Below, one piece after another: positions 1-51,437 of a stretch of 51,437 bases of DNA. Numbering within the stretch: the stretch's first letter is position 1; each line of letters opens with the position of its first letter. Source of the stretch: a virus; the IMG/VR virus record IMGVR_UViG_3300018017_000002, positions 1 to 51,437 of that record; one strand, given 5' to 3'. The translations under genes and the position numbers were made by a program. The notes below the pieces were generated by a model that did not search any database, was not told where the DNA came from, and saw nothing but the letters and a program-made list of their open reading frames with translations.

Positions 1-123
1 ATTCTCGCATACAAATCTTTCCTGAATAGATTCTTATCAACCATTTCTCTTATATTGCGATTAGTTGCACACACAAACCTACATGAAATCTCTTTTTCAT
101 CTGCTGCACCGACAGGACGAATG
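1..123. repeat. terminal overlap identical to 51315..51437 (circular closure of the assembly)
   Basis: Direct comparison of the first 123 nt with the last 123 nt shows identity; an ORF reads through the join. Confidence 0.95.
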
Positions 124-680
124 TATCTTTTGCCATCAATAGGTTGTAATACATTAAGCAACTTAGCTTGTGTTGACAATGGCAAGTCGCCAATCTCATC
201 AAGAAACATTACTCCATCTTGGGCAGATAGTATTAGTCCTTTCTTACTGCTAGTTGCACCAGTAAATGCACCAGCAGTATGGCCAAACAGTTCTGACTCC
301 ACTAACTCTGCTGGCATAGCCGCGCAATTAATACGAGCAAATGTTCCTTGTCTATCACCTATCATTGCTCTAGCTATTAGCTCTTTACCAGTTCCAGTTT
401 CACCAGTAATAAGAACTTCATCATCAACTTTAGCTAGCTTCATAGCATCAGCTTTCATGGCTAGGGTATCTTCATCTTCGGTTATAAACTTCTTCAACCA
501 CAAAGCTGCTCCTGTAACCATATCTACTAACTGTCCATTCTCAATTCTAAACTTTAACTCAGGAGTAATATCTAGTAACTGTTGTACAGCTTCTACTTGT
601 CCAACAGCTAACAGAGAACGCAGAGTAGATTCTGTTGGAGCTATTCTATCAGGTGTGTTAGGTTTTTGTATTGATATCAT
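1..680 (-). CDS. sigma54-dependent transcriptional activator (bEBP, AAA+ core), 5' two-thirds; continues through the circular junction into 51314..51083 (303 aa when joined)
   Basis: Own reverse translation from ATG at 680: MISIQKPNTPDR...DDEVLITGETGTGKELIARA (Walker A)...ELFGHTAGAFTGATSS (GAFTGA loop)...DGVMFLDEIGDLPL (Walker B)...CATNRNIREMV. The + strand track ORF 55..714 is its shadow. Confidence 0.9.
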   Translation of the reverse strand, partial: MISIQKPNTPDRIAPTESTLRSLLAVGQVEAVQQLLDITPELKFRIENGQLVDMVTGAALWLKKFITEDEDTLAMKADAMKLAKVDDEVLITGETGTGKELIARAMIGDRQGTFARINCAAMPAELVESELFGHTAGAFTGATSSKKGLILSAQDGVMFLDEIGDLPLSTQAKLLNVLQPIDGKRYIRPVGAADEKEISCRFVCATNRNIREMVDKNLFRKDLYAR

Positions 681-6785: not shown

Positions 6786-6853
6786 TACAAATAGCATACT
6801 ACTCCTTCAAAACTCCACATGGTTTCCATGTCAAGCCGTGGTCAAGGGAGTGT

Positions 6854-7747: not shown

Positions 7748-7897
7748 TTGTCAGTCCTTTCTTTTGAATGACGGTCGGGTTTGATGCGATAGCGCCTTTT
7801 TGTTTCATTCTCATTCATAATTATTTTATTTGTTGTTCAATATTTAGAAACTAATTGCCGCCCTCAGTTTATACAAAGAGCGGACTTAGTTACTAAC

Positions 7898-8506
7898 TTA
7901 CTCAGGAGATGTGGTCTCTGTGGCGGCTTCCTTCGAGCGACGCGCTTTGCGCTCTTCAAAGTCAGCCTTCAAGCTATTCAATGTAGCAGTCATAGTGGCC
8001 ATCTTAGCCTTTGCATTGGCAATGGCAACGGCATCCCCGGATTCAAATGCCGCAATAAGAGTGACAGAAGTGAACTCCTTATACTCATTAACAGCAGCTT
8101 GATAGGCCTCATTAAGCTCAGACAGACGCATTGCAGAGGACTTGAGATTCGTCCAGAAGCCCAAGAACTTCTCCAATGAGAAGATACCATTCTTCAACCC
8201 GCCAGCCTTTTCAGACTCTTCGTCGCCAGTAGCATCCTCAACAAAATCTTGGCCATACCGACGGCCAATAGTATTGAGGGCATTTTTGACATTAGTTTTT
8301 CCCCACCATGCCAAGTCAGCCAAAAAGATTGGGTCAGCGGCAGGCAAAGAGTCAGTACCATCAGTTTCAATCTGTGCAGCTTGGTAAGGCTTATCTTTCC
8401 AAGCATCACGTTTGCCTGTACAGATGGTTAGAATCTTTTCAACGCCATTACGCACTACTTTGTGAGCAGTAGCCAGTGGATTGTGTGTATGTTGTGTTTC
8501 ACTCAT
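7898..8506 (-). CDS. hypothetical protein (202 aa)
   Basis: Track ORF with ATG start. Confidence 0.6.
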   Translation of the reverse strand: MSETQHTHNPLATAHKVVRNGVEKILTICTGKRDAWKDKPYQAAQIETDGTDSLPAADPIFLADLAWWGKTNVKNALNTIGRRYGQDFVEDATGDEESEKAGGLKNGIFSLEKFLGFWTNLKSSAMRLSELNEAYQAAVNEYKEFTSVTLIAAFESGDAVAIANAKAKMATMTATLNSLKADFEERKARRSKEAATETTSPE

Positions 8507-8842: not shown

Positions 8843-8858
8843 AGCATTTATCATGCCA
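8843..8858 (-). promoter_or_regulatory. sigma54-type -24/-12 promoter P5
   Basis: Minus strand reads TGGCAT-GATAA-ATGCT followed by ATA; intergenic, pointing into 8587..8790. Confidence 0.65.
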
Positions 8859-8907
8859 CACAAAGATTAGATACTAAATGGATGTTAGAAAGTATATTAG
8901 TCAATGA

Positions 8908-9550: not shown

Positions 9551-9844
9551 TGGTGGAGCAGACGGGAATTGAACCCGTGTCCAATAATTATTTCTCACTA
9601 ATGAATTACAAGTTTATACTAACGGGGCGACTGATTTCAGTCACCATCCACCATTGGTCAGTTAAACTGTGACCAAACCAGCATCCACATAGCCGTAATG
9701 TGCAAGCACGGCATCAGCTTGTGCAACAGACATTGCGTAGTCTTGGTTAGCATTTGTTTTGCCTAGAGAGTTTTAAGTGGCCAACTAGACATCCACTACT
9801 TGCATTAGTTTTGATTTAATTACTGTCGAAACCATTACTGCCCC
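9551..9844 (-). ncRNA. ssrA: tmRNA (transfer-messenger RNA), 294 nt
   Basis: Minus strand: 5' GGGGCAGTAATGGTTTCGACAG...3' GGACACGGGTTCAATTCCCGTCTGCTCCACCA. The 7-bp acceptor stem has G3:U70, the T-arm is ACGGG-TTCAATT-CCCGT, CCA is encoded, and there is an internal tag ORF. Confidence 0.9.
9662..9763 (-). other. tmRNA tag reading frame: (A)GKTNANQDYAMSVAQADAVLAHYGYVDAGLVTV, then TAA
   Basis: Resume codon GGC follows a CTCTAG/pseudoknot-like region. The GKTN start resembles known GKTN-type tags. 33 codons, then TAA. Confidence 0.6.
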
Positions 9845-10055: not shown

Positions 10056-10071
10056 AGCAACTTCTATGCCA
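10056..10071 (-). promoter_or_regulatory. sigma54-type -24/-12 promoter P4 (upstream of the tmRNA)
   Basis: Minus strand reads TGGCAT-AGAAG-TTGCT followed by ATA; about 200 nt upstream of the tmRNA 5' end. Confidence 0.7.
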
Positions 10072-11612: not shown

Positions 11613-11704
11613 TATTTAAGTCATGGGAAATTGGCACAATGCTATCCCGTCAATTTAGACTCTATTCTCTTTTCAGGATTTATTCTGCTATTATTGTTTG
11701 CTCT

Positions 11705-11720
11705 TGGCACACACTATGCT
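11705..11720 (+). promoter_or_regulatory. sigma54-type -24/-12 promoter P1
   Basis: TGGCAC-ACACT-ATGCT in the divergent intergenic region, pointing right toward the AT-rich block. Confidence 0.65.
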
Positions 11721-12057
11721 TTTCACCCATAGACCTACGCTGTTAAATACTACACACCAGCCCGGACTTTCATGTGACTCGTTGACCGTGCTTAACCACC
11801 GCTACCAGTTACTAGTCTAAACGAGCAAGTGATAGCGTAGCAGTGTGCGTGCCAACTTTGTAAGTAGTTGATAATCAAACGTTACTTAAAACACACCTAG
11901 TAAAGTTATATCGTTACCGTGTTTCTTTTTATACACTACCACACTTAAGTCATTGTATATTAGCACTTTACAAACTGTCTATTTTTGCTCACAGCGGTCA
12001 ATTCCTGTGTCTCAAAAAAGTGTCCTGTACTTACATTAGTATCTCTTATTCTCCCCT

Positions 12058-12215
12058 GTATATTATGCCTAGTATAATGTATGGTTATATTAAATGTAAT
12101 GTATAAGATATAAATATATTATATTATATTTATATTATATTTTTTAATATACTTTCTAACATTTTAAATATTTATGTATATTAATGTTATATTATTTCAA
12201 ATAATATATCCTACC
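12058..12215. other. extremely AT-rich low-complexity block (candidate DNA-unwinding element / replication origin)
   Basis: About 160 bp of ATATTATATT-type repeats with almost no G/C, at the divergence point of the two arms. Confidence 0.4.
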
Positions 12216-12467
12216 TTTATACTCTCCAAAGTATATCGGCTAATATAGGTGCTATTCATTAGTGATGCTTATGCACTAATACGTCATAATAGCATCTAAT
12301 CATACCTATGCTAGGTTAGCTAGTCTAATGGTTCAGGATGGCTAGACGAAACCAGAAAGAGAAACACGAAACTGAACTATGACTCTCTCTTGATACGAAC
12401 ATTTTGAAATCCAGCTAAATGATACAGATAGGCTAATATGAAGGGAGAATTAGCTAGTAATATATGA

Positions 12468-12483
12468 TGGCACAGAAAATGCT
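12468..12483 (+). promoter_or_regulatory. sigma54-type -24/-12 promoter P2 (start of the rightward arm)
   Basis: TGGCAC-AGAAA-ATGCT followed by ATA. The predicted start site falls within a few nt of the ATG at 12496. Confidence 0.7.
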
Positions 12484-19901: not shown

Positions 19902-19917
19902 TGGCATGAAAATTGCT
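19902..19917 (+). promoter_or_regulatory. sigma54-type -24/-12 promoter P3 (upstream of the major capsid gene)
   Basis: TGGCAT-GAAAA-TTGCT, a full match to the canonical TGGCAC-N5-TTGCW spacing; 150 nt upstream of the ATG at 20069. Confidence 0.8.
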
Positions 19918-19941: not shown

Positions 19942-20000
19942 TTAGCCTCTAATAATCCAAAGGGCATTGGAGTTAGCCTCTAATAGTTGTTGAAGGGCAT
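19942..20000 (+). repeat. two imperfect ~31-33 nt direct repeats in the capsid-gene leader
   Basis: TTAGCCTCTAATA at 19942 and 19973, each followed by AGGGCAT (19961, 19994). The first copy sits in the palindrome TTATTAG-CCT-CTAATAA. Confidence 0.7.
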
Positions 20001-20068
20001 CAACTCGGTTGCAAGTTACGTTTAACTTGTCATTGAGTCAGTCAACAATTTAATTGAAAGGTTAACAG

Positions 20069-21403
20069 ATGCCGTCATATTACAGTCAGCCAGGTTCATT
20101 CGCTAATGCAATCATTCAGCCGAATAACTTGTTCGCTCAACTTCCTTTCTACCTTGTTCATAATGAGGTAGAACAATACTGTAACTGGAATGAATTTGAC
20201 CAAATGTATGGGTCAATTCCGTGGCAGGAAAATATGGGTTCTGTCATGGAAGCAGTTACTCCACAGCGTTCACCTGTAGGTCGTTCGTTCTTCTTTCCTA
20301 ATCCTATTACTACAGCCAGTAATAAGGACATCTATCAGGTTACAGAATCAAATGAACAGGCTGTGTTGTACAAACACAAGTATGGTTCATTTGTGTTTAA
20401 CTTCATTCCTTCATTCCAAGTATTTTGGGATAAGTACATTAAGTTTAACTCTGATGATATTGTTAAACAAATTGCTGTAAGCAATAACCAGTTCATCGAA
20501 ACACAGATGTGGCAGAATGCTACTTATGTGTATATTTGTGGTGTTGGTCTTAGCGCTGGTGCTCCTACTGGTGCGATGAACTCGACTCTTAATGCAGCCA
20601 ACTCTAAGTCTGCTGCATGGCTAGTTGCCCTTGCTCAAGGCACAGCAGCTAATCCTGGCCCACTTCAAAATCTTCGTATTCGTGATGCATACCGTGCAGT
20701 AATGAATCTGCAAGATGATTTGGGTGCTCCTTCATTTAATGGTGCTAAGAACATGCCGAAAGACAATGAGGGTCTTAAGGGCCGTTATGCACTGTTCTGT
20801 GGTTCTGAGGATTACTTTAACTTTACCTTTGACCCTGATGTTAATGGTGTTGTTGGTACACAAGGTATGTTAAAGTCTGTTAATCTTGACTTGCTGTTTA
20901 ATGACTTCAAAGGTTCCTTGTTTGGTACATTGACATGCAAGATTAAGAAGTATCCTATTCGTTATAGTACACAGAACATTGTTGATGGTGCTGGTACTGT
21001 TCTTTGGGCGGCTGGATTTCCTATTGACCCTGAAATCTTCGACCCAACTGATAACAAGTGGAAACCTAATCCTTATTACACATCACTTGTGTCTGCTCCA
21101 TACTCTATTGCCTGGCTACTTGGTGATAACTTCTGTAAGACACTCAAGGTTGGCCCTCCACCTAAAGAGTTTGCTACAAAGAATATGTCAGGTGAGAAAT
21201 TCTACTCACTGCGATGGAATGGTGAGGTTCGTTTAACTGACCAGATTCTTATTACTAACTCTGATGGTTCGATTGAACTTAACGACTATGGTGAAAACTT
21301 GCAGCTTAAGTCTCAACTAACTCATGGATTGATTATGACAGAAAGACGTTTTGCGTTTCCAATTATAATTGCACGTTCTCGTCCAGCAATTACTTCTGTC
21401 TAA
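20069..21403 (+). CDS. major capsid protein (by position, size and expression signals)
   Basis: 444 aa; follows the scaffold-like gene; has its own strong promoter-like site and a long leader. Confidence 0.65.
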   Translation: MPSYYSQPGSFANAIIQPNNLFAQLPFYLVHNEVEQYCNWNEFDQMYGSIPWQENMGSVMEAVTPQRSPVGRSFFFPNPITTASNKDIYQVTESNEQAVLYKHKYGSFVFNFIPSFQVFWDKYIKFNSDDIVKQIAVSNNQFIETQMWQNATYVYICGVGLSAGAPTGAMNSTLNAANSKSAAWLVALAQGTAANPGPLQNLRIRDAYRAVMNLQDDLGAPSFNGAKNMPKDNEGLKGRYALFCGSEDYFNFTFDPDVNGVVGTQGMLKSVNLDLLFNDFKGSLFGTLTCKIKKYPIRYSTQNIVDGAGTVLWAAGFPIDPEIFDPTDNKWKPNPYYTSLVSAPYSIAWLLGDNFCKTLKVGPPPKEFATKNMSGEKFYSLRWNGEVRLTDQILITNSDGSIELNDYGENLQLKSQLTHGLIMTERRFAFPIIIARSRPAITSV

Positions 21404-41213: not shown

Positions 41214-41387
41214 TTATACATTTTGTCTTTCTTTTTCTTGTGCCATAGTATCTAAAAATATTTTTAAGTGTTCTGGTTCCTTATCATGTGTAACCTTACA
41301 TATAACTTTAAGTCCAACCATTGATAAGGTCTTTACTACTAGATAACTTTTATCATCAGATAAACTAATAATCACATTTTCATTCAT
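41214..41387 (-). CDS. hypothetical small protein (57 aa)
   Basis: Below the track cutoff; MNENVIISLSDDKSYLVVK...; ATG overlaps the MazG stop. Confidence 0.35.
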   Translation of the reverse strand: MNENVIISLSDDKSYLVVKTLSMVGLKVICKVTHDKEPEHLKIFLDTMAQEKERQNV

Positions 41388-41704
41388 ACTTTCCCATCCT
41401 TCTTATTTTTAGTCCAATCTCTTTTCTTGACTTCTTCCCAAGTGTTCGATACTGCCATACTTAAGTCAATATCATTCTGTTCACAATAGTCAGCTAGATA
41501 TATTACAATATCACCTATTGCATCTATCTTAGACATAGTATGCTCAATATCCATACCTCTAATACCTTGCTCTGCTTTCAAATGAGCATGACATAGTTCA
41601 CCAACTTCTTCTGACACACCAAGCAATGGTTGATGTTTCTGTTTATTAGGAAAGTTCTTAGCAGACCATTCTGCTACTTCAATTTGTAATTTTGTTAAGT
41701 TCAT
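41384..41704 (-). CDS. MazG-like nucleoside triphosphate pyrophosphohydrolase
   Basis: 106 aa; ...LLGVSEEVGELCHAHLKAEQG...IGDIVIYLADYC... typical all-alpha MazG motifs. Confidence 0.7.
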   Translation of the reverse strand: MNLTKLQIEVAEWSAKNFPNKQKHQPLLGVSEEVGELCHAHLKAEQGIRGMDIEHTMSKIDAIGDIVIYLADYCEQNDIDLSMAVSNTWEEVKKRDWTKNKKDGKV

Positions 41705-43086
41705 ATTGCTTTGTATATCATGTATGTTTTATGTGTAATTTTATCCTCAGCAGAATCCTCTATTATCTTACCAGTTCCTATCAAATGTCCTAGAACATCC
41801 TCTGCTGATTTCTTACCTTGTGGTAATGATTTCCAGAACTCCATCACTATATCAACCATTGTTGTTGTATGCCTTTCGCCAATATAGTGAAATATCCTGT
41901 CTGTCACTTTAGCTAAAGGATTATCAGTCTCAGACTGCAAAGCTAAATGCATGGTAGGTTCTTCTTTGTCTAATATCTCTATAGCTCGTTTAACTTCATC
42001 TATGCCAATAGTCATATTATTATTCTGAATACCACCATAATCATTCTCAGAAAAGTGTTCAGCCATAGCTACTTTCTTAACCATTATTAGTTTTCTAGTA
42101 TAATAATGTATTAACTTTGGCGAGCTATTAATTCGATTTTTAGGGTTAGAATCAAATTCTATCCACCAATCATCTAAGTATTTAGCAGCTTCAGGAGTAA
42201 ATTTAACCTGACCATATAACTTAGCTAGATTCTTTATATGAGCTAACAACTCTGCTCTATATCTAGCTTGTTCAGGAGTTGGTTCTGGTATATCTGACAC
42301 TGACTTACGATTCTTAGTTGCACAGATAAATAAACATCTAGCAGCAAATCCAGTACCTATTAACTTGTCATTTGATATTTCTTCCATGAAGTCAGGAGTA
42401 GTTCCAGCTAAGAAATTAAGGCATCCTCTACGCACTCTGTCCTCTCCATTATTCTTAGTTTTGTATTCATAGTCTAAAGGGCAGCCATGAAGTCCATTTA
42501 TGTAATGGATTACACTGTCAGCTTTCTTTCTAAAAAGACTACCTAGCTCGTCAAGACAAAAGAACATTGAGCAATGATAGTATATGTCCATCTTAGGTTC
42601 GCCAGAACCATTCATGTATGTAAAGTTAATTCTTCTACCAGCCTTGGACATGCTATCTACTAACGCTTCGTATGTAGTAGCATCAGGTGCATAAGGGAAT
42701 AGAGTAGCATCCACTTTCTCACCACCACGTTTAAGCTTCATAGTAGATGCTTCTGCATCCTCAAGGTTAGCCTGCTCTACTTTCTCTATTACTAATTTCT
42801 CTTGTTCAGAGGATTTATCATGAACGGTATTGAAGTCTTTTTTCTTGTGATATTTTAGGAACTCCATCACGCGAGTTAGCACTAATGATTTGCCAGTCCC
42901 TGGCGGGCCATATAGAATGCCATACATATTGCCAAATAATGGATTAGTACCATTCTTAGGGTCAGCACCAAATGCCACTCTACGTTGTAATGATGCGGCC
43001 ACAATGAATCGCCAGCCCCATTGGACGTATCTATCAGGGCTAGGCAGAGCATCATTGTAGGCCATCCATTTGTCAAAGTTGGTCAT
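41701..43086 (-). CDS. AAA+/P-loop ATPase, candidate replicative helicase or loader
   Basis: 461 aa; Walker A ...GILYGPPGTGKSLVL..., Walker B ...MFFCLDELGSLF...; adjacent to the polymerase. Confidence 0.6.
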   Translation of the reverse strand: MTNFDKWMAYNDALPSPDRYVQWGWRFIVAASLQRRVAFGADPKNGTNPLFGNMYGILYGPPGTGKSLVLTRVMEFLKYHKKKDFNTVHDKSSEQEKLVIEKVEQANLEDAEASTMKLKRGGEKVDATLFPYAPDATTYEALVDSMSKAGRRINFTYMNGSGEPKMDIYYHCSMFFCLDELGSLFRKKADSVIHYINGLHGCPLDYEYKTKNNGEDRVRRGCLNFLAGTTPDFMEEISNDKLIGTGFAARCLFICATKNRKSVSDIPEPTPEQARYRAELLAHIKNLAKLYGQVKFTPEAAKYLDDWWIEFDSNPKNRINSSPKLIHYYTRKLIMVKKVAMAEHFSENDYGGIQNNNMTIGIDEVKRAIEILDKEEPTMHLALQSETDNPLAKVTDRIFHYIGERHTTTMVDIVMEFWKSLPQGKKSAEDVLGHLIGTGKIIEDSAEDKITHKTYMIYKAI

Positions 43087-43235
43087 ACTTTATTAGGAAA
43101 GAAATACTTTCTAGTAGCATGTAACCTCTTTTGTTTTCTAATCCATCCTGATTTCTTTTGATATGACCATCTTAATTCTTTTTTAAGATAGTGTGCTGCT
43201 AAATAAATAGCTAGAAATTCATATTTATCTTTCAT
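43083..43235 (-). CDS. hypothetical small basic protein (50 aa)
   Basis: Below the track cutoff; ATGA overlaps at both ends link it to the polymerase C-part and the ATPase. Confidence 0.35.
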   Translation of the reverse strand: MKDKYEFLAIYLAAHYLKKELRWSYQKKSGWIRKQKRLHATRKYFFPNKV

Positions 43236-44287
43236 ATAGCTAAAGTTTTCAGTCCCATCGGATTATCTTTCTCTTTGAATGGTGCCCAATTAAGGCCCAC
43301 TTGAGTCTCAGATTTCATATTGAATACTACTCCATCAACAGGTGATGTAAACTCCTGTTCAATAAATTCTTTCTGTTTTCTTCCGCACTGCATTGCTTCT
43401 TCTATAGGACATTGAGATACTATGCTGTCATGGCCATTAAGTAACAAGTCCCAATCAAGATGATTAGTCTCTATGTATTCCTGCATTGCACAGTATGCTC
43501 TGTTAGTTATCTCACCTACCGTTGATTGCGGAGTCCATGCATAGAATGATTTATAGTCTTGTTCCGATGGACTATGCTGACTAAGATAATAAGGAGCTCC
43601 AAAGAAGTTATAAAGTATTCTTGTCTTTTCAGCTTGATAACGAACTCGCCTATTACGTTCAGGAATTTCAGGAAATAACGAACGATGTATTACTAGAAAT
43701 CTAGTGGCTTCGTCCATTGGGAGAGATATTTTTCCGCCAGATTTCTCCAAAACATTCATTCTAAATGCTTGTGCTTGTACATCATAGTTAGCACTAAGAT
43801 TAGTTTGTTTGCCAAAATAATAATATCGTTTAGATGATGGCCAGTTGTCAGTCTCTTTTATTAGATGCGACAAATCTTTCCAGTATGGATTAGATTTTAG
43901 TGCTTGTATAGGCGTCTTTAGTACATCTTGTATATCAAATCCTGGTACATCTTTCATTTCTTTTTGCCATACATAAGGAAACAAATGAGCACTAACATAC
44001 ACATGAGAATGTACTCCATGAATGAATAGCTGTCTATATGGGCCAGCTTCACAATCATATCCCATGATAAGAGCTTCGGCTCCGGCTTGGTCAGTCTGAA
44101 CCAAAATCTTACCATCATCAGGTACATATATCTGACGCATTGATTTCTCAATGTTTTGTAAGTTACCACCAAAACCTATCTTCTTCAACTTGCCATTGAT
44201 ATACTGTTTCTTAGGCATAATTTGCCTAGAACGCAGACGAAAAGATTCTGCGCCAGCTACATGCCACATACAGGAATCTCTAATCAT
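43232..44287 (-). CDS. family-A DNA polymerase, C-terminal part (palm/fingers)
   Basis: 351 aa; ...FGGNLQNIEK..., motif A ...VQTDQAGAEALIMGY..., motif B-like ...KRYYYFGKQTNLSANYD..., motif C ...LLNGHDSIVSQ... Confidence 0.8.
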   Translation of the reverse strand: MIRDSCMWHVAGAESFRLRSRQIMPKKQYINGKLKKIGFGGNLQNIEKSMRQIYVPDDGKILVQTDQAGAEALIMGYDCEAGPYRQLFIHGVHSHVYVSAHLFPYVWQKEMKDVPGFDIQDVLKTPIQALKSNPYWKDLSHLIKETDNWPSSKRYYYFGKQTNLSANYDVQAQAFRMNVLEKSGGKISLPMDEATRFLVIHRSLFPEIPERNRRVRYQAEKTRILYNFFGAPYYLSQHSPSEQDYKSFYAWTPQSTVGEITNRAYCAMQEYIETNHLDWDLLLNGHDSIVSQCPIEEAMQCGRKQKEFIEQEFTSPVDGVVFNMKSETQVGLNWAPFKEKDNPMGLKTLAI

Positions 44288-44433
44288 TTTATGTATCTTA
44301 GATACGAGCCTGTAATTACTTTTGAGTTAAAGCTAGATGTAGGAGGCACCCATTCTATACCTAGTTTCTTAAACCATTTCTTTTGTGCTTCAGTTGGTGG
44401 AAGTTGACACACTATTCGTGGTTGTGCTTTCAT
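44284..44433 (-). CDS. small ORF (49 aa) bridging the two polymerase parts
   Basis: MKAQPRIVCQLPPTEAQKKWFKKLGIEWVPPTSSFNSKVITGSYLRYIK. It starts inside the 3' end of the N-part in another frame. Its TGA overlaps the ATG of the C-part (ATGA). Confidence 0.3.
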   Translation of the reverse strand: MKAQPRIVCQLPPTEAQKKWFKKLGIEWVPPTSSFNSKVITGSYLRYIK

Positions 44434-45952
44434 TTGTATTAATCCAAGGAATAAACCTAAGACGACTTGTTTCTTTCCTTGTTTGTCTATAAATATTTAC
44501 TAATGTTAATACAGGATTGTTATACTTGAGTGCTAGTTTGTACAACGACTTCTTACCTAATGATGGCTGTCCAGTATCCTTAGACCGAAACATAACAGGA
44601 TAACCTAACAACTCATGGAAGTAAGTGCAGCATTGTTTAGTCGAACCAGCAAACATGCCAACCTTTCTTGTTCCTCTTATATCTTTCATGCCTTGCTCAC
44701 CAATCAAAATCTCAATCATTCTATTGTACTGTACCATCAATCTATCATTCTCATTACACATAGAATTTATTTTCGCCTCGTCCGTTTTGATGCCTTGTAA
44801 CGTGGAGGTAAGATAAGGACGAATACACCGCATAGCAGCCATAATACTTTCAGATAAACCGGGAATCGTTCTAGCATATGATTCAATAGCGTTGTAAACT
44901 AGATACATAGTGTACACATCTTTACCACAATAGCGTAACCTGTCCATCATTTGTTCATGTGTTCTGTATGCCATTGAGTTCTCATCTTTATGAAATTTCT
45001 CCCATGTCCAGTATGATACACAATGACCAAGAGACTTTTCAATGTCAGGAAAGCATCTATGCATAGCTATCATAGTATCATATGTCTTAACTATTGGTAT
45101 ATGATACTTCCACGCTAAAATAAAGAAATCAAATGTTTGACCATTGTGGGCAACTAAAGTATTGTCTCTAATAGCAATTGCCAAAGCTCGTAAAATACAG
45201 TGTAGATTAGTATAAGCCCACTTATAGTTATAATCAAGAACAGGTACAGAATAAATAGTAGAGCCATCAAAAGAGAAGCTAAAGCATTGCCAATTGCATT
45301 CTTCAATGTCTGTCTCTTTGTCATAAAATAATAGTTTGTTCTTGTTATCTTGTAAACACTCTATCACTTCTTTAGCTGATGGATAGATAATGTATTTTGG
45401 TTTTCCAACCACTGGACTGTAGTCAGCGAGTATCTTCTTACACTTGGATACATCAGCTTTGAGCCAAAAAGCATAGTTAGCCCTCTTGGTTCTGCCATGT
45501 CTCTTAACATCGCCCTCGTCCTCATCTTCATCTGAACCTGATACCTCAGAGTCTGTAGAATAGTCTTTAGCATATGGATTATTTTCTCCTTCATAGTTAC
45601 GAGGGTCAACTGCATCTTGCGGAAGATAGGATGCTATTGCAGGAATACCTTTGTGATACATCAGGGAACCTCTCATTTCATTGAGTGAGTTCCCTAATGT
45701 TTCAGGAAGGAATTTATGCATTGCTGATTCTCCAAGTAGTAATATACACTTGGTATCGGGGAGTAGCGGTGCAGTTTCATCCCTTAATCTCACGTCACAT
45801 TGCATACTATTATATTCAGGGCGTAGACAATGGTTGTCAAAAAGCAATCCTCCATTTGCACTTAGTAACCTTAGAGAATCAAATCTGCTTGGATTACTCA
45901 TGACTACTGTCAATCCTGAATACTTAAACTTTGGTTTGTTTCTTAATAACAT
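44390..45952 (-). CDS. family-A DNA polymerase, N-terminal part (about 200-aa extension, 3'-5' exonuclease, thumb)
   Basis: 520 aa; Exo I ...LFYDKETDIE..., Exo II ...LVAHNGQTFDFFIL..., Exo III ...RYCGKDVYTMYLVY... Confidence 0.8.
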   Translation of the reverse strand: MLLRNKPKFKYSGLTVVMSNPSRFDSLRLLSANGGLLFDNHCLRPEYNSMQCDVRLRDETAPLLPDTKCILLLGESAMHKFLPETLGNSLNEMRGSLMYHKGIPAIASYLPQDAVDPRNYEGENNPYAKDYSTDSEVSGSDEDEDEGDVKRHGRTKRANYAFWLKADVSKCKKILADYSPVVGKPKYIIYPSAKEVIECLQDNKNKLLFYDKETDIEECNWQCFSFSFDGSTIYSVPVLDYNYKWAYTNLHCILRALAIAIRDNTLVAHNGQTFDFFILAWKYHIPIVKTYDTMIAMHRCFPDIEKSLGHCVSYWTWEKFHKDENSMAYRTHEQMMDRLRYCGKDVYTMYLVYNAIESYARTIPGLSESIMAAMRCIRPYLTSTLQGIKTDEAKINSMCNENDRLMVQYNRMIEILIGEQGMKDIRGTRKVGMFAGSTKQCCTYFHELLGYPVMFRSKDTGQPSLGKKSLYKLALKYNNPVLTLVNIYRQTRKETSRLRFIPWINTNESTTTNSVSTSTN

Positions 45953-46124
45953 TTGAATCGTGTGATGCTAGTTCTGCCATTATAGCAATACCAATAGATT
46001 TTATATAATCTATATGACGAGCAATTATCTTTGTCTCTATGTCATTAGCTAATACTGAAATCTTAACTCCATAAGTTCTTATTTCCCCATTAGTTACTAT
46101 ATTATCCTCAATTCCTATTTGCAT
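45924..46124 (-). CDS. hypothetical protein (66 aa)
   Basis: Track ORF with ATG start; overlaps the polymerase start by 29 nt. Confidence 0.4.
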   Translation of the reverse strand: MQIGIEDNIVTNGEIRTYGVKISVLANDIETKIIARHIDYIKSIGIAIMAELASHDSNVIKKQTKV

Positions 46125-46163
46125 AAATTAAATAAAAGCCGATACTATTTATACTCCCTCGGC
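46125..46163 (-). terminator. candidate rho-independent terminator after 46181..46717
   Basis: Minus strand: GCCGA-(16 nt)-TCGGC followed by TTTTATTTAATTT. An alternative CTCCC/GGGAG stem overlaps it. Confidence 0.5.
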
Positions 46164-46180
46164 AAACGGGAGGCGATTAT

Positions 46181-46717
46181 TTAGTAAGGTTTAGAACTAT
46201 CAGTGGGCGCTAGTGCAAAGATTTGAACTATCTTAGGATAGTTAGTCTTGAGTTCTTTCTCAGTGATAGGATGTTTCAATACATCACCCTCTTTAATCCC
46301 CTTAGCCAGCTGTTCTTTGGTTGGAGATTTGCGTTTAGCTTTCTGGTCATTATCTAGTTCAGCATATACAACCTTACCTTTGAATCCCATTGGAGGATTC
46401 TCAGGATTAAAGTTATCTTCATCAACAGGAATTTCGCATGCTTTGTAAAGAGCGAGCAAGCGTTTCTTGTTGTCTGCTGTCTTTTCAATATCAACTTGAC
46501 CATCTACTAATGTTTGTACATTCTGATAATACTTAATAGGTATTCCAGCAATGTTATATTCTTCTCCTGCTACTTCCATTGATTCGGGAGAAACAATTTC
46601 TAATCCAAGAGTAAACATTGGATTTTCCTTGCTAGAAGGAGCAAACTTTTCGTCTACGAATCTAAGAATATAGTTTGATTGATGTTCAAACACTACATCC
46701 ATGTTCCATTTCTTCAT
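46181..46717 (-). CDS. hypothetical protein (178 aa); possible ssDNA-binding protein by position only
   Basis: Lies between the recombination genes and the polymerase; no verifiable motif. Confidence 0.5.
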   Translation of the reverse strand: MKKWNMDVVFEHQSNYILRFVDEKFAPSSKENPMFTLGLEIVSPESMEVAGEEYNIAGIPIKYYQNVQTLVDGQVDIEKTADNKKRLLALYKACEIPVDEDNFNPENPPMGFKGKVVYAELDNDQKAKRKSPTKEQLAKGIKEGDVLKHPITEKELKTNYPKIVQIFALAPTDSSKPY

Positions 46718-46784
46718 TGTTAATTGGCAGTAGGATGCCAGCCTATGTTTTGTTTATCCTCTTAGATGTTATATCCAAGAGAAA

Positions 46785-46955
46785 TTACTTACCAGCAGCC
46801 TTGGTAGGTTGTGGTGGTTTAGCGAACTCTGTTTCAAGTTCATGCAGGTTAGTCAATACTTCAGCAAAGGTAGCATAGAATAATGCTGACTGACCTTTGG
46901 TTGAAGATACGGATACTAACCATCCATTCATTATCTTATTGATTGTTATGTTCAT
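46785..46955 (-). CDS. hypothetical small protein (56 aa)
   Basis: Below the track cutoff; MNITINKIMNGWLVSVSSTKGQ...; ATGA overlap with the upstream stop. Confidence 0.35.
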   Translation of the reverse strand: MNITINKIMNGWLVSVSSTKGQSALFYATFAEVLTNLHELETEFAKPPQPTKAAGK

Positions 46956-47239
46956 ATTTCAATTTTAGGAAAGAGTTCAGTAATGATTTTATTGAATTGT
47001 TCTTTACGTCGTTCGGCCAATGCTAGTTCATCTAGCTTATCAATGATAGTATCATAGTTAAGTTCTTTAACCGAACATGCTTCATTAACTTCTTTCTCCA
47101 ATGTTGCACAACGCTCCTCAAGTTTAGCGACTTCAAGTTCGGCTTTTAATTGTTGTGATTTAGAACGAACAGGTGCAAGAGTTTTATCAACTGCATCCTT
47201 CGTCATTGTTATTAGTTTTTGATATGGTGTTAGTTTCAT
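46952..47239 (-). CDS. hypothetical coiled-coil-like protein (95 aa)
   Basis: Track ORF; heptad-like Lys/Glu/Leu-rich sequence. Confidence 0.5.
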   Translation of the reverse strand: MKLTPYQKLITMTKDAVDKTLAPVRSKSQQLKAELEVAKLEERCATLEKEVNEACSVKELNYDTIIDKLDELALAERRKEQFNKIITELFPKIEI

Positions 47240-47445
47240 ACTTTGTTAGTTAGTAATAATAGTTTCTTGTTTATTATTTTCTCTACTGGTTGTGTAGATT
47301 GTTGTGGCCATCCACCTAATGGTTGCATTGCTGCCATTTCTCCCATCTGTGATTGTTGCATCATTCTATATTGCATTTCTCTTTGTCTTTGTCTTTCTTG
47401 CATTCTATAATATTCTTCTATAGAATTATTTGTGAGTCCATTCAT
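47236..47445 (-). CDS. hypothetical Gln/Met-rich protein (69 aa)
   Basis: Track ORF; ATGA overlap. Confidence 0.45.
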   Translation of the reverse strand: MNGLTNNSIEEYYRMQERQRQREMQYRMMQQSQMGEMAAMQPLGGWPQQSTQPVEKIINKKLLLLTNKV

Positions 47446-47446
47446 A

Positions 47447-48304
47447 TTAAACCTTTCTCATGTACTTACTAAAGGATTCCCAATTGGCAGGGATGAATTT
47501 TGGTTGATTAACTAATGAGCCAGACTTGGCATTAAACAAATCATCACCTATTGTTTGCCAATAGTATATTGCTGGCCCAACAAATGTATCACACATTGCC
47601 TTGAACTCTTTAACATCTTTCATTCCCCATGCGGCCAATGACTCTGGTTTGATACTACTATAATCAGTTGGCTTAGCTGCAACATGCTGTCTGAACCAGT
47701 CTGTGTAGTCTTTGATTATGGTATCACCAGACTTGCCAGACAACACAGGACGTATCTTACCTGTGTACTGTCCCGGCTGTCCAACTGTTGTTGGTTTGTC
47801 AGGTCGCTCTGACTCATGGCAGAGTAACATAACATCACACTTAAGTGACAATAGTATAAATGAAATCTCATTTATATACTTCTCTTTTATCTGCCACTCC
47901 ATAAATTCATTGACTCTACCAGTCTTAGAAATAGCTACTTCCATTTCATTGGCTTTAAACCAAATATGATATGCATTTTCAATATCAGATAGTCCATCAA
48001 GTATTAAAGTTTGTTCACTAGATAATTTTGGTGACTCTTTCTCTAACCATTGTACAAACTTATCTTTAACTTCTTCTCTCTTGCCACCTACTTCTGATTT
48101 GTAGAATGGTACTTCATGAACGTCAGCCCTTCCTTGATGTGCACCTAGACCTCTATTTAGGTTAGCAACTATAGGATGTTGAAATGTAAGGGCCGCCCAT
48201 GTCTTTCCAGTGTTTGGGAAGCCTTGAATACCTAGTCGGATTTGTTGTCTGCCTACTATCTTGTCTAATGAATTGCAGTTAGGTGGAATATAAATGTTAC
48301 TCAT
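47447..48304 (-). CDS. Sak4-like / AAA_24-type P-loop ATPase (recombination-associated)
   Basis: 285 aa; Walker A ...LGIQGFPNTGKTWAALTF... near the N-terminus; next to the PD-(D/E)XK nuclease. Confidence 0.65.
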   Translation of the reverse strand: MSNIYIPPNCNSLDKIVGRQQIRLGIQGFPNTGKTWAALTFQHPIVANLNRGLGAHQGRADVHEVPFYKSEVGGKREEVKDKFVQWLEKESPKLSSEQTLILDGLSDIENAYHIWFKANEMEVAISKTGRVNEFMEWQIKEKYINEISFILLSLKCDVMLLCHESERPDKPTTVGQPGQYTGKIRPVLSGKSGDTIIKDYTDWFRQHVAAKPTDYSSIKPESLAAWGMKDVKEFKAMCDTFVGPAIYYWQTIGDDLFNAKSGSLVNQPKFIPANWESFSKYMRKV

Positions 48305-48318
48305 TGTTGTTCTTTCTA

Positions 48319-48594
48319 TCAGTTACCTGTGTTCTCTAAATACTTATGTCGTTCTATATTGGCATCTGGTATTATACCCTTCTGAATCTTTACTCCACCA
48401 ATCTCTATGTTCAAATGGTTTTGTTCAACAGTTGTTGTAGAAGGGCCAAGAGTTAATAAGGGATATGCTCTGTTAAAAGCCTGTAACAAAGACTTACCAG
48501 ATGTATGTTCTATTACCAGAGCTAGTAAGAACACTCCATCTTTGTCTTTAATATGTATTGAGATTGTTTTTGGTTCGGTCATAAAATGTTTCAT
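48319..48594 (-). CDS. hypothetical protein (91 aa)
   Basis: Track ORF. Confidence 0.5.
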   Translation of the reverse strand: MKHFMTEPKTISIHIKDKDGVFLLALVIEHTSGKSLLQAFNRAYPLLTLGPSTTTVEQNHLNIEIGGVKIQKGIIPDANIERHKYLENTGN

Positions 48595-49640
48595 ATTTCA
48601 TTATATTTTAGAGGATTAAATATACGTTTTTTGAAATCTCTCTCTAATAAAATCTCAGATACATTTTCTTCTGAATTACAAACACACCAAAATTTGCAAC
48701 GTCCCCACTCACCTATACACGACCCGTTAATTAACCCTTCTTGTGGTAAGTAACCAGTCTTAATAGCTTGTGATAGTCTCTTACATTGGTCATCAAGTGT
48801 AAGTCTAAATGCATCAAGCTCAGCATCTCTGTATGTAAACACTGATGACCTACCATACGATGTCTCATTCATAGCAGGCTTGATAAAGATAGCATCTATA
48901 AATGCACCAGTATTAGTCTTACCTATCTGTCCAAGTATAGAGTTAGGTTCAAGGGCCGCCATTAGTTTTAATGCAACAGTATAAATGCGTAGCTGTCTAG
49001 CTCTATCATATTTAGAAAAGTATTCTTTCTTATTCCAAGTTGAGGTTGTTTTGAAATCTCGGATAGCATAACAGCCACCCTTAATCCTGCCTAAACCATC
49101 TATTGTTCCACACAGATAGATTCGTACTGTATCATCTTCGTAATATAGAATACGGAAGGTTACTTCGGATGCGGGTTGTAAGAATGATTTGGCTCCATTA
49201 CAGACTGGACACTCTGATACAGTTAAAATGACTTTATCACCTTCCATTCTAAGACTAGAAGTATCTGCAAAAGTTCCACTCCCCTTACACTTCCAACAAG
49301 GCAAGTTAAGTTCTACTAACTCAAACTCTTGGTCAGGCTTAATATACATTTCCCATGTGTTAAAGGCTACACCTATCATATGGTTCTTGTCCATAAGATG
49401 CGGTGATTTACCTTTGAAGTCAACCTTAGGTGCAGAGAAAGCTAATTCAGCTTCGGCCCTAGCTGTTGGTATGTGCCCTTTAGTCTTGTACATCATGTCC
49501 CAATACTTATGACATGCTACACCATAAGTTAGTTTGCAATCTTGCACTGGTTCTGTATATCCATCTACAACAGTTCTGTGTAAATTAAGAATACATCCAG
49601 ATGCTCCAAGAGCAGTTGAGTCTAAGTTAATATCAATCAT
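48591..49640 (-). CDS. PD-(D/E)XK (RecB/Cas4-like) exonuclease with an inserted CxxCxGxG zinc finger and a C-terminal Cys cluster
   Basis: ...YLCGTIDGLGRIKGGCYAIRDFKTTS... (D...D-x-K), ...RQLRIY... (QxxxY), CWKCKGSG...CPVCNGAK, C-terminal ...CIGEWGRCKFWCVC... Confidence 0.7.
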   Translation of the reverse strand: MIDINLDSTALGASGCILNLHRTVVDGYTEPVQDCKLTYGVACHKYWDMMYKTKGHIPTARAEAELAFSAPKVDFKGKSPHLMDKNHMIGVAFNTWEMYIKPDQEFELVELNLPCWKCKGSGTFADTSSLRMEGDKVILTVSECPVCNGAKSFLQPASEVTFRILYYEDDTVRIYLCGTIDGLGRIKGGCYAIRDFKTTSTWNKKEYFSKYDRARQLRIYTVALKLMAALEPNSILGQIGKTNTGAFIDAIFIKPAMNETSYGRSSVFTYRDAELDAFRLTLDDQCKRLSQAIKTGYLPQEGLINGSCIGEWGRCKFWCVCNSEENVSEILLERDFKKRIFNPLKYNEI

Positions 49641-49876
49641 CTTTTCTTATATGTTAGTAAACTCACATCTACCTCAATCCCAAGATTCTTAGCTAGGGCT
49701 AAGCCTTTAGCTAGGTTAGGATTGGCAGACATAAGTTGTTGCTCTTTGCGTTTAGCTGGTGTTGCCATTTCAGGACGGGTCTCTGGAAAGTATTGAGCGA
49801 AATGAATCCTAAGTTCTTCATCAGACATCTTTTCCAAAGTAGCTGCATCACAAGCTATTAGTTCCTCAATGGTCAT
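49637..49876 (-). CDS. hypothetical protein (79 aa)
   Basis: Track ORF; ATGA overlap. Confidence 0.5.
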   Translation of the reverse strand: MTIEELIACDAATLEKMSDEELRIHFAQYFPETRPEMATPAKRKEQQLMSANPNLAKGLALAKNLGIEVDVSLLTYKKR

Positions 49877-50030
49877 ATAAGGATGCTAAGTCAGCTAGCA
49901 CAAATTGCGGTTCTTTATCTGGAATAAATACTGTTACATTTTTCTTTGTTTTCTTTATTGACTGTATATTATGGCCACCAGAAATTCTATGTGTTGACAT
50001 ACCCACATATCTGAACTTATTCTTCTTCAT
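49866..50030 (-). CDS. hypothetical small basic protein (54 aa)
   Basis: Below the track cutoff; MKKNKFRYVGMSTHRISGGHN...; ATGA overlap with the upstream stop. Confidence 0.3.
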   Translation of the reverse strand: MKKNKFRYVGMSTHRISGGHNIQSIKKTKKNVTVFIPDKEPQFVLADLASLYDH

Positions 50031-50650
50031 GACTTAATAATCTTAACCTCTCTTGTTGATACAGAAAATATAATGTTAGTTAACCCATCTAACTCCATGT
50101 TAAGTTGTTCAACTTGTTCAGGAGTCAATAGCAATCCATCCTTATGAAAAGGCTCGGTGGCTTGTGGGTTGTCTAACCATTCTTCCATGTTACGTTTCCA
50201 TATAGGATTATCTTCTTCTGCTATACAGACTTCTGCTTTAGGTGAGTCGCCTTCTAATACATCATCAAACTTCATTGCTACTCCTACACCATCTATCATA
50301 GAAATAGTAATTTCTTCTCTAAACTTTTTGTATATGCCTTGTTCATCCATATTGTTCTCTACATCCAATAGATAACGAAAGGCTTGATTAACTCGTAAGT
50401 ATAACGAACGAACACTGACATTAGGCCACAAATCTTTTCTATATGTTCGTGGCTGTCTGTCCTTAATCATTTCGTCTATGTCTCTTTTCAACCATTCAGC
50501 ATAACGACGTTTGTAGTATGTAGCATACGATTTACGACTCCAACCATGAGGACGTTTCTTAACAACTAAATTTACAACTTGTTGCATAGTACGACCGTCA
50601 TTGAAAGTTACTGTAACAGGCTTGGATTGTTGTTCTATTGGTTCAGACAT
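50027..50650 (-). CDS. hypothetical protein (207 aa), first gene of the replication module
   Basis: Track ORF with ATG start. Confidence 0.6.
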   Translation of the reverse strand: MSEPIEQQSKPVTVTFNDGRTMQQVVNLVVKKRPHGWSRKSYATYYKRRYAEWLKRDIDEMIKDRQPRTYRKDLWPNVSVRSLYLRVNQAFRYLLDVENNMDEQGIYKKFREEITISMIDGVGVAMKFDDVLEGDSPKAEVCIAEEDNPIWKRNMEEWLDNPQATEPFHKDGLLLTPEQVEQLNMELDGLTNIIFSVSTREVKIIKS

Positions 50651-50707
50651 ACAGATTAAATCAAATGTCCAGTTTTATGTGGTTACTGGACAGGTTTATG
50701 AATAACC

Positions 50708-50723
50708 AGCAAAAGCCTAACCA
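50708..50723 (-). promoter_or_regulatory. weaker sigma54-like site P7
   Basis: Minus strand reads TGGTTA-GGCTT-TTGCT (GG and TTGCT at correct spacing, -24 flank degenerate); about 47 nt upstream of the ATG at 50650. Confidence 0.35.
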
Positions 50724-51042
50724 AATGCCGCCACAATACCTTAAATTGTTTAGGCAAAGGGTGGCTCGTGAAAACCACAACACTGTTAAGTATTACTTTC
50801 AACGCCCGATGCCTTCAAACAGCTAACGTCTAATTCCGTTTACTGTGTATTGTCAGAGTGCCATGTTATAGACATTCACTCATTGTCTATACTATTACTT
50901 ATGTCACAGTTAATCGATGGAGCTTGTGAACAAGGTATCGTCAACCAGTTTAATAATAGCTTCTGTCTTTATTCAGAATGTCAAGCGCATATTTTATGTC
51001 TATCGCCCAGACAAAATTAACATCTAATTGCTCAATACTATA

Positions 51043-51058
51043 AGCATTTTCTATGCCA
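51043..51058 (-). promoter_or_regulatory. sigma54-type -24/-12 promoter P6 (25 nt downstream of the bEBP stop)
   Basis: Minus strand reads TGGCAT-AGAAA-ATGCT followed by TATA; points into the replication module. Confidence 0.7.
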
Positions 51059-51082
51059 AGTCAGATTAGTGTATAACTAATG

Positions 51083-51437
51083 TTAGAAAGTATATCGTAT
51101 CTTTCCTAATACATTATATCTTTTCAATGCTTGTTCAAGTGACCTTACATTCAATGACAAATCAATCTTATCATTCATTATAGCTTCTTCATATTGAGCT
51201 AGAAATTCTTTTGCTTTGACTGGCAACTTAAGTAAATCTCCAAGAGCTATTACTATTGGAACTATATCTCTCTTACGTTCCCTCAATGGTTTAATGTGCA
51301 ATTCAAATGTACTTATTCTCGCATACAAATCTTTCCTGAATAGATTCTTATCAACCATTTCTCTTATATTGCGATTAGTTGCACACACAAACCTACATGA
51401 AATCTCTTTTTCATCTGCTGCACCGACAGGACGAATG
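51083..51437 (-). CDS. sigma54-dependent activator, 3' third (same gene as 1..680; 51315..51437 duplicates 1..123)
   Basis: ...CATNRNIREMVDKNLFRKDLYARISTFELHIKPLRERKRDIVPIV...LNVRSLEQALKRY..., then a stop 14 aa later. No C-terminal HTH. Confidence 0.9.
   Translation of the reverse strand, partial: IRPVGAADEKEISCRFVCATNRNIREMVDKNLFRKDLYARISTFELHIKPLRERKRDIVPIVIALGDLLKLPVKAKEFLAQYEEAIMNDKIDLSLNVRSLEQALKRYNVLGKIRYTF

Follow-up and report, generated by a model that had tools for sequence, protein, structure and literature searches.

What use would a phage have for an activator of sigma-54 transcription that has been stripped to its ATPase motor? This question is raised by the virus record IMGVR_UViG_3300018017_000002, which was analysed over its whole length of 51,437 nucleotides (hereafter the window). 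A preliminary description had noticed that an open reading frame (ORF) running off one end of the record continues at the other, and had proposed that the joined gene encodes a minimal bacterial enhancer-binding protein (bEBP) through which the phage exploits the sigma-54 RNA polymerase of its host. From a comparison of the gene, its relatives and the promoters that accompany it, we consider it likely that this minimal bEBP runs a sigma-54 programme in which the replication, packaging and capsid genes of the phage are transcribed by the host sigma-54 RNA polymerase.

Joining the reverse complements of 1..680 and 51083..51314 gives, as had been claimed, 912 nt comprising 303 codons and a terminal TAA with no internal stop. 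Bases 1..123 are identical to 51315..51437, which yields a circularly closed unit genome of 51,314 bp with a GC content of 39.7%. The parts of the gene are disposed as follows.

51315..51437, no strand: terminal overlap, an exact repeat of 1..123 lying within the bEBP gene; circularly closed or permuted assembly
1..680, minus strand: 5′ part of the bEBP gene, from the ATG at 680-678 through codon 226 to the second base of codon 227
680..486, minus strand: N-terminal extension, ankyrin-like in appearance, within the 5′ part
404..381, minus strand: Walker A motif GETGTGKE, within the 5′ part
272..255, minus strand: GAFTGA motif, within the 5′ part
51083..51314, minus strand: 3′ part of the bEBP gene, from the third base of codon 227 through codon 303 to the TAA stop (51085..51083), encoding LRERKRDI and the sensor II motif NVRSL

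That the two ends join is borne out by a mosaic, non-identical relative of ~97% nucleotide identity (L001, IMG/VR UViG_3300037843_000033), which reads uninterrupted across the junction. Its positions 6616-7307 correspond to window 692-1 and its positions 7185-7967 to window 51437-50655, and the 303-amino-acid protein that it encodes is 100% identical to that of the window. Moreover, the survey of related phage genomes that had been suggested found bEBP homologues of 281-307 amino acids mid-contig in five other assemblies (contigs of 8-53 kb). The contigs of these relatives start at different points; thus the ends of the window represent an assembly cut in a circular or permuted genome and not a physical genome end.

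The protein is the AAA+ motor of a bEBP and carries neither a sensor or receiver nor a DNA-binding domain. The hallmarks listed in the preliminary description occur in the order given there, namely GETGTGKE (residues 93-100), GAFTGA (137-142), FLDEIGD (159-165), ATNRN and FRKDLYAR (205-226), LRERKRDI (237-244) and NVRSLE (282-287). In a hidden Markov model search the protein matched Pfam Sigma54_activat (PF00158) with E=1.8e-54 (184 bits against a cutoff of 20.2 bits) over residues 66-232, corresponding to positions 2-167 of the 168 in the profile. Neither HTH_8 nor Response_reg, both expected to be absent, was matched in Pfam even at E<=1, the other matches being to generic AAA families only. 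In NCBIfam, matches are restricted to the central domains of NorR, RtcR, NifA, NtrC and PspF and fall far under the full-length cutoffs. Two lengths required correction: the Pfam domain begins at residue 66, making the upstream extension ~65 and not ~85 amino acids long, and the stop lies 16 residues after NVRSLE where 14 had been counted.

Conservation was assessed in an alignment of 45 members of the bEBP family (A1). Residues G96, G98, K99, E100, T140, D161, E162, R220, R226, N282 and R284 are invariant in all 45; T140 apart, they belong to Walker A (G96 to E100), Walker B (D161, E162), the arginine fingers (R220, R226) and sensor II (N282, R284), so that the ATPase site is intact. The GAFTGA motif forms the L1 loop that contacts sigma-54 and sets bEBPs apart from other AAA+ proteins; it is conserved across the alignment with the variants GAYTGA, GSFTGA and a single GAFTDA, and G137, G141 and A142 are invariant or nearly so. 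All 45 members end within a few residues of a common point, and more than 100 protein clusters of 281-329 amino acids stop at the same point as the window bEBP. When compared with the AAA+ domains of FleQ, NtrC1, ZraR and PspF, the 45-member profile gave E=1e-52 to 1e-69 and was matched up to position 290 of 293. The structure prediction that had been proposed as a check gave an AlphaFold (AF2) model with a mean predicted local distance difference test score (pLDDT) of 91.6, in which the bEBP fold terminates at the AAA+ lid helix. The top 50 Foldseek matches of this model are all bEBP AAA+ domains (FleQ, NtrC1, FlrC, LuxO, PspF and ZraR), with E down to 9e-23 and a target template-modelling (TM) score of ~0.8.

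At the C-terminus, no Fis-type helix-turn-helix (HTH) was found by Pfam, and the protein ends at the AAA+ lid helix in both the model and the profile match. At the N-terminus, none of the regulatory domains sought (receiver, GAF, PAS, V4R or CARF) was matched in Pfam. The Pfam scan and the AF2 model thus agree with the earlier statement that receiver, sensor and Fis-type HTH domains are all absent. The protein is predicted to hydrolyse ATP, to form a hexamer or ring and to remodel sigma-54. From the BFVD library of viral structures only generic AAA+ proteins of 13-17% identity were recovered, and no bEBP-like viral structure was found. Reading the gene as part of a defence system was rejected, as the PADLOC matches cover just the AAA+ part of the RtcR and PspF models.

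The window also contains a set of sites of the -24/-12 type. Promoters were recognised by a GG and a GC doublet with a spacing of exactly 10 nt in a TGGCAC-N5-TTGCW context, and the strict motif was defined as TGGCA[CT]N5[ACT]TGCT. The strict motif occurs at 7 sites against 0.31 expected (maximum of 3 in the 300 simulations), all 7 of them intergenic, whilst a looser motif gives 10 matches against 2.2 expected. These seven sites are putative sigma-54-type promoters, with a predicted transcription start ~12 nt downstream.

51043..51058, minus strand: putative -24/-12 promoter TGGCATAGAAAATGCT, beginning 25 nt past the bEBP stop; a ~390-nt leader follows, then a 207-amino-acid ORF (50650..50027) and the replication/recombination block to ~41214
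12468..12483, plus strand: putative -24/-12 promoter TGGCACAGAAAATGCT, heading the plus-strand packaging/head block; the ATG of the first ORF (12496) is 12 nt past the motif
19902..19917, plus strand: putative -24/-12 promoter TGGCATGAAAATTGCT, preceding the major capsid gene by 151 nt
8843..8858, minus strand: -24/-12 motif TGGCATGATAAATGCT, internal to the leftward block and ahead of genes leading to the bEBP gene
10056..10071, minus strand: -24/-12 motif TGGCATAGAAGTTGCT, ~210 nt upstream of the phage transfer-messenger RNA (tmRNA) gene (9844..9551)
11839..11854, minus strand: -24/-12 motif TGGCACGCACACTGCT, heading the leftward block, within the divergent intergenic region
11705..11720, plus strand: -24/-12 motif TGGCACACACTATGCT, convergent with the motif at 11839; no obvious gene downstream

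Three of the seven positions are conserved in relatives, i.e. those after the bEBP gene, at the head of the packaging block and upstream of the capsid gene. Following the bEBP stop, a -24/-12 site is present at 12 of the 12 loci with DNA, its distance from the stop being 25-45 nt for the close clade and 83-182 nt for a distant lineage whose bEBP has 260 amino acids. The promoter at the head of the plus-strand block recurs in 9 relatives. Here, the first small ORF of the block begins 11-24 nt past the motif in relatives L009, L013, L015 and L019, implying that the sigma-54 promoter gives rise to a leaderless mRNA or one with a very short leader. The capsid-gene promoter was found in 17/17 IMG/VR relatives and in contig L027 (18/18 loci), at -142 to -175 from the ATG, the proteins being down to 55% identical. 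TGGCA and TGCT alone are invariant in an alignment of this promoter; the spacer bases vary and the flanks have diverged. Moreover, minus-strand motifs occur at the place equivalent to 11839 in L008, L009, L015, L019 and L023.

A shared enhancer was sought in the 250 nt upstream of the seven promoters, where no 9-mer (one mismatch allowed, either strand) was common to them beyond what was seen in shuffles. Likewise, the alignment upstream of the capsid promoter contains no conserved element. The promoters adjoin the preceding gene at a distance of 15-36 nt, which leaves no dedicated space for an enhancer. Together, the abutting genes and the lack of a shared upstream element fit an activator that acts independently of enhancers.

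Several minor observations concern the surroundings of these sites. The facing motifs at 11704-11720 (plus strand) and 11839-11855 (minus strand) form a 17-nt inverted repeat whose arms are separated by 118 nt of the divergent intergenic region; they are either convergent promoters or a different kind of site. An exact 16-mer, ATATACTTTCTAACAT, occurs three times (8882-8897 and 51080-51095 on the minus strand, 12147-12162 on the plus strand). Two of the copies precede -24/-12 promoters by 21-23 nt, and in both of these promoters TGGCAT is immediately preceded by CTAATCT. The copy that overlaps the stop codon of the bEBP gene encodes the final YTF and stop. Among the relatives, exact copies are found only in the one of ~97% identity. 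Between the promoter after the bEBP gene and a conserved gene of ~200 amino acids there is an untranslated stretch of ~390 nt (50651-51042, minus strand; 300-725 nt in relatives), which could represent either an extended leader or an RNA that is not annotated.

The preliminary description had further held that no sigma factor or RNA polymerase is encoded elsewhere, and a scan of the ~30 largest ORFs revealed none (sigma-70, sigma-54 family or RNA polymerase domain). Taken together with the Sigma54_activat match and the conserved -24/-12 promoters, this supports the proposal that the phage would bring the activator alone and rely on the sigma-54 RNA polymerase of the host. We envisage the following course of infection. 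The bEBP gene stands at the end of a leftward early block and would first be transcribed without activator, probably from host-type promoters in the divergent AT-rich region at ~11950-12330. Its product would assemble into an ATP-hydrolysing ring and, lacking a DNA-binding domain, would use its GAFTGA loops to contact the host sigma-54 holoenzyme from solution, the holoenzyme presumably being parked beforehand as closed complexes on the phage -24/-12 promoters. The promoters opened in this way would be those directly downstream of the activator gene (replication/recombination), at the head of the packaging block and at the capsid gene. On the minus strand, the motifs at 11839, 10056 and 8843 precede the bEBP gene in its direction of transcription and could thus provide positive feedback. 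Accumulation of the activator would set the timing of middle and late genes, with the phage giving the activator and the host giving the sigma-54 RNA polymerase; both this temporal order and the enhancer-free action of the activator are what we infer. Host sigma-54 promoters would probably be co-activated, because the engineered, AAA+-only DctD250 acts from solution and is promiscuous and constitutive in Salmonella (PMC3844500).

A wider version of this proposal can be put forward with less assurance, and on balance we lean slightly towards it. The gene may be the first recognised virus-encoded bEBP, serving as the master switch in a clade of soil phages that is large and structurally 'dark'. 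It would fire all sigma-54 closed complexes, i.e. its own upstream promoters, which would make commitment self-amplifying, together with the operons for replication, packaging and the capsid, the tmRNA and, collaterally, the whole host regulon. Post-early transcription would then take place essentially all on the sigma-54 holoenzyme, sigma-70 being ignored or shut off.

How far does such a system resemble those already described? Cellular bEBPs without a DNA-binding domain include FlgR of Helicobacter pylori, CtcC of Chlamydia and FleT of Rhodobacter sphaeroides; FlgR and CtcC keep a receiver, and FleT works with the DNA-binding partner FleQ. Proteins of this type are able to activate the sigma-54 holoenzyme from solution. 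Like these, and like DctD250 and PspF(1-275), the last of which is among its structural matches, the phage protein is a GAFTGA-bearing sigma-54 AAA+ domain without a C-terminal HTH. Unlike such chromosomal or engineered proteins, it is encoded by a virus, has no receiver either, bears an ankyrin-like repeat and is coupled to its own promoter set. Phages that appropriate the host RNA polymerase for late genes (T4 by gp55/gp33/gp45, N4 by its SSB, P2 by Ogr and Mu by C) act on the sigma-70 holoenzyme or replace sigma. The phage of the window is similar in that an early phage product would redirect the host RNA polymerase to middle and late promoters, but the mechanism would differ entirely, since ATP would be hydrolysed to remodel a holoenzyme, that of sigma-54, which is unrelated.

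Reliance of phages on the sigma-54 of the host is 'rare but not unprecedented', as Pseudomonas aeruginosa phage YuA (Yuavirus) strictly requires it (PMC5053324; PMC10914365). Both YuA and the phage of the window are tailed, lack an RNA polymerase of their own and have -24/-12 promoters on virion genes (here those at 12468 and 19902). However, the window phage also has such a promoter heading its replication block, there is no sequence relationship between the two, YuA has no annotated bEBP and no Pseudomonas phage appeared among our tblastn matches. Lacking a bEBP, YuA must rely on host activators or an unknown factor. Its sigma-54-dependent structural-gene promoters were reportedly described by Ceyssens et al. 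in 2008. The YuA record (AM749441) has three -24/-12 promoters annotated, in the structural/lysis region.

The bEBP of the window matches the PHROG family phrog_7998, of unknown function, over residues 71-294 (E=9.7e-37). The profile of this family has 339 positions and the match stops at 232; its members therefore extend further C-terminally than the window protein. The match shows that related AAA+ proteins sit unannotated in phage and prophage gene catalogues. In a tblastn search of 50,697 GenBank phage records, no match covered >=80% of the bEBP. The matches to GenBank 'phage' entries were discarded as phage bEBPs, almost all being contigs of bacteria that had wrongly been labelled as phage. 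Full-text searching of the literature turned up no account of a bEBP encoded by a phage, and a survey of jumbo phages (PMC7824862) mentions neither sigma-54 nor NtrC. The 'sigma-54-like' gp2 of Pectobacterium phage Q19 was dismissed as a precedent, since it is a weak HHpred match (E=0.67) and concerns the sigma factor and not an activator. The earlier remark that no phage programme of this kind had been described thus holds for the phage-encoded activator, for which no literature was found, and fails for dependence on host sigma-54, for which YuA is a precedent. In kind, the window would combine a sigma-54/bEBP system with phage takeover of the host RNA polymerase, the virus-encoded activator being new as far as the literature found shows.

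The part of the protein that is least easily placed is its N-terminus. Residues 1 to ~65 are conserved across the 45-member alignment and are modelled confidently by AF2 as helix-helix-hairpin-helix; they are about neutral in charge and have no HTH signature. When residues 1-68 were searched against 1.8 billion representative proteins, they retrieved family members and a 2103-amino-acid ankyrin-repeat protein, which was matched repeat by repeat (E=4e-19 over 6 stretches, 27-32% identity per repeat). A weaker match was to a tetratricopeptide repeat (TPR) protein. The N-terminus therefore looks like a single ankyrin-like repeat, and whether it tethers or regulates the motor is the main uncertainty within the model.

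A number of points weigh against the proposal of a free activator serving phage promoters. The conserved ankyrin-like repeat could tether the protein to a partner bound to DNA or polymerase, so that 'free in solution' may be too simple, and enhancers could still lie within the upstream coding sequence. The convergent pair at 11705 and 11839 is unexplained by the model. The proposal presumes a host that carries rpoN. Sigma-70 consensus sites are not enriched in the window (36 against 32 expected) and no activator-independent promoter for the bEBP gene was pinpointed; nor is the Bacteroidota -33/-7 pattern enriched (13 against 9.3 expected). A minus-strand cluster of sigma-70-like sites in the AT-rich region 11950-12330 is weakly suggestive. 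Lastly, the 41-kb GenBank record MT121960.1 lacks clear -24/-12 sites despite encoding a homologue with GAFTGA. This record (L032, human-gut 'Phage DP SC_2_H4_2017') holds the homologue as an unannotated bEBP-like ORF of 304 amino acids at 3770-4684, adjoining a primase, and its Walker A motif is degenerate (GETGTDKE).

It is possible, if rather unlikely, that the activator is a tethered one, the ankyrin-like repeat binding a partner from the host or the phage (for example sigma-54 itself, RNA polymerase or a protein bound to DNA) that either replaces the DNA-binding domain or regulates the motor as PspA does PspF and FleN does FleQ; the sigma-54 mechanism would be unchanged. Ankyrin repeats are established protein-protein interaction modules, and the N-terminus of 65 residues, which is conserved and confidently folded, matches individual repeats of the 2103-amino-acid protein. 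However, a lone repeat is atypical of ankyrin domains and the weaker TPR match suggests a partly generic helical-repeat composition. The 260-amino-acid protein of the second lineage has a shorter and different N-terminus, and the gene just upstream of the bEBP gene differs among relatives, providing no linked candidate for a partner there.

The promoters bear on a different question, that is, whether the main target is the phage or the host. An activator that forces on the sigma-54 regulon of the host (such as genes for RNA repair, envelope stress or nitrogen assimilation) to the benefit of the phage, with the phage promoters served mainly by host activators, seems improbable to us. An activator without a DNA-binding domain should be promiscuous, to judge from the DctD study (PMC3844500). 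Furthermore, the -24/-12 promoters of YuA are annotated in GenBank as having high promoter activity, and YuA is without a phage bEBP. This activity is said to have been measured by promoter trap in uninfected cells. Against this stand the -24/-12 sites at 12 of 12 loci after the bEBP gene and the co-occurrence of the gene with conserved phage promoters across lineages, which point to a dedicated activator-promoter pair. Host activators, moreover, usually depend on enhancers specific to them, and upstream of the promoters no conserved sites were seen.

The same promoters would be self-defeating if the protein were an antagonist or decoy that titrates or locks sigma-54 to stop host sigma-54 transcription, and we regard this, or a role outside transcription, as highly improbable. 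Some bEBP relatives do repress or work without sigma-54 (TyrR, VpsR and NtrX are among the profile matches), and the MT121960 homologue combines a degenerate Walker A motif with the lack of nearby -24/-12 sites. Yet relatives that are independent of sigma-54 are known typically to be without GAFTGA, whereas the present family conserves the GAFTGA loop and every ATPase residue, which is unexpected for a passive decoy. Finally, we give practically no credence to an assembly artefact, in which a piece of a host bEBP would have been attached at the contig ends or a false join made between them: the gene does span the contig ends with an overlap of just 123 bp, but this explanation is refuted by independent, non-identical assemblies that hold the intact gene mid-contig with the same neighbours and by the endpoint shared among more than 100 clusters.

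A phage-directed sigma-54 programme would have consequences beyond this genome. To our knowledge, the sigma-54 pathway is the sole bacterial route of initiation that is fully silent until an ATPase fires, and this silence makes it an ideal orthogonal channel for a virus; YuA is the only phage that we know to need host sigma-54. The solution seen here would be self-contained, consisting of a 303-amino-acid activator and 16-bp promoters, and is spread over hundreds of metagenomic genomes and at least 2 lineages. If the proposal is true, it adds a new class to the strategies by which phages take over RNA polymerase, and infection would globally induce host sigma-54 regulons. The protein may also offer a natural minimal, constitutive bEBP for mechanistic and synthetic-biology use. 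Moreover, the signature of a minimal bEBP with TGGCAY-N5-TTGCT could be used to assign such phages to rpoN-bearing hosts and to annotate otherwise unrecognisable genomes.

What kind of phage carries the gene? Genes for a ligase, a helicase, a primase, a split PolA, a Sak4-like protein and an exonuclease lie in the minus-strand block. Those downstream of the promoter that follows the bEBP gene and the predicted capsid gene on the opposite strand are listed here.

41214..50650, minus strand: replication/recombination block, downstream of the post-bEBP promoter
48591-49640, minus strand: exonuclease-like gene of this block
47447-48304, minus strand: Sak4/AAA_24-like gene of this block
44390-45952 and 43232-44287, minus strand: split PolA of this block
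41701-43086, minus strand: primase of this block
20069..21403, plus strand: major capsid protein with predicted HK97 fold, 444 amino acids (AF2 and Foldseek)

The two PolA ORFs correspond to the exonuclease/N-terminal part and the polymerase part of a family-A DNA polymerase, and the same split is seen in relative L024. Among relatives the common order of neighbours is helicase, ligase, small genes, activator, a gap of 300-700 nt, a gene of ~200 amino acids, a PD-(D/E)XK nuclease, AAA_24, PolA and primase.

The plus-strand virion block (12496-41210) gave nothing credible in profile searches against PDB sequences, and its 14 largest ORFs matched 0 PHROG families and nothing above the gathering cutoff in Pfam. 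Structure prediction alone revealed the capsid. The AF2 model of the 444-amino-acid protein is of moderate confidence (pLDDT 61; predicted TM score, pTM, 0.65), its top 50 Foldseek matches are all phage capsid proteins, and the best of these are from Moo19, N4 and DEV (E=1.5e-8, probability 1.0). N4-like podoviruses thus provide its nearest structural relatives, and a weak SU10-adaptor match supports a podovirus-like virion. Going by this model, the element is a tailed phage (Caudoviricetes) with an HK97-fold capsid. ORFs of 631 and 640 amino acids have no PHROG, Pfam or PDB sequence match, even as profiles. The 631-amino-acid family has invariant SGKDKY, FATDE and GLDLSDGG motifs, which resemble Walker A, Walker B and nuclease motifs; we presume the 631-amino-acid protein to be the terminase and the 640-amino-acid protein the portal. 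A further ORF, of 2155 amino acids and glycine-rich at its N-terminus, matches nothing in PHROG or Pfam and lacks a DxDxD motif. It was considered and rejected as a phage RNA polymerase for want of that motif, and in the PDB it matched, marginally, an 'internal virion protein' alone.

At 90% identity, the capsid family falls into 387 clusters, and at least 10 contigs of 40-54 kb, with identical lengths, are common to the bEBP and capsid match lists, which makes the activator a core gene of the clade. The clade is sizeable and uncultured, with hundreds of ~50-kb metagenomic genomes. A second viral lineage (L003-L006) consists of contigs of 35-47 kb with 46% GC, and its bEBP of 260 amino acids has GAYTGA and is 44% identical. 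In one example, L004 9917-10699 (IMG/VR UViG_3300030098_002480), this bEBP adjoins a MoxR-like ATPase and is followed by TGGCATGATTCCTGCT.

As to the host, GenBank phages have no nucleotide similarity to the window and the capsid protein was not found in 185k GTDB species genomes. A profile search recovered one 4.6-kb contig of the clade, L027 (CAZVYV010000274.1), with 41% GC, the capsid promoter and the leader hairpins. Its placement in an 'uncultured Terracidiphilus sp.' metagenome-assembled genome was not accepted as a clue to the host, since at 41% GC it is probably mis-binned. Few genes have Shine-Dalgarno sequences, which is a weak hint of a Bacteroidota-like host.

Three further elements may be RNAs or act as such. 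The tmRNA gene (9551-9844, minus strand) is matched by Rfam RF00023 with 112 bits and E=3e-43, its acceptor and T arm are intact and the CCA is encoded; the tag peptide given by ARAGORN is unusually long (ANQDYAMSVAQADAVLAHYGYVDAGLVTV, then stop) and is without the usual LAA ending. An 88-nt tRNA-like element at 6285-6372 (minus strand) is recognised by Rfam (36 bits against a 29-bit cutoff) and not by ARAGORN. The 5′ leader of the capsid gene contains two hairpins (19956-19971 and 19989-20004, plus strand) with the loop AGGGCA(U). Of the three copies of AGGGCAT in the genome, where 6.2 would be expected, two lie in this leader. The second hairpin has compensatory changes at 5/5 stem pairs across 13 relatives, and the pair is a candidate RNA regulatory element.

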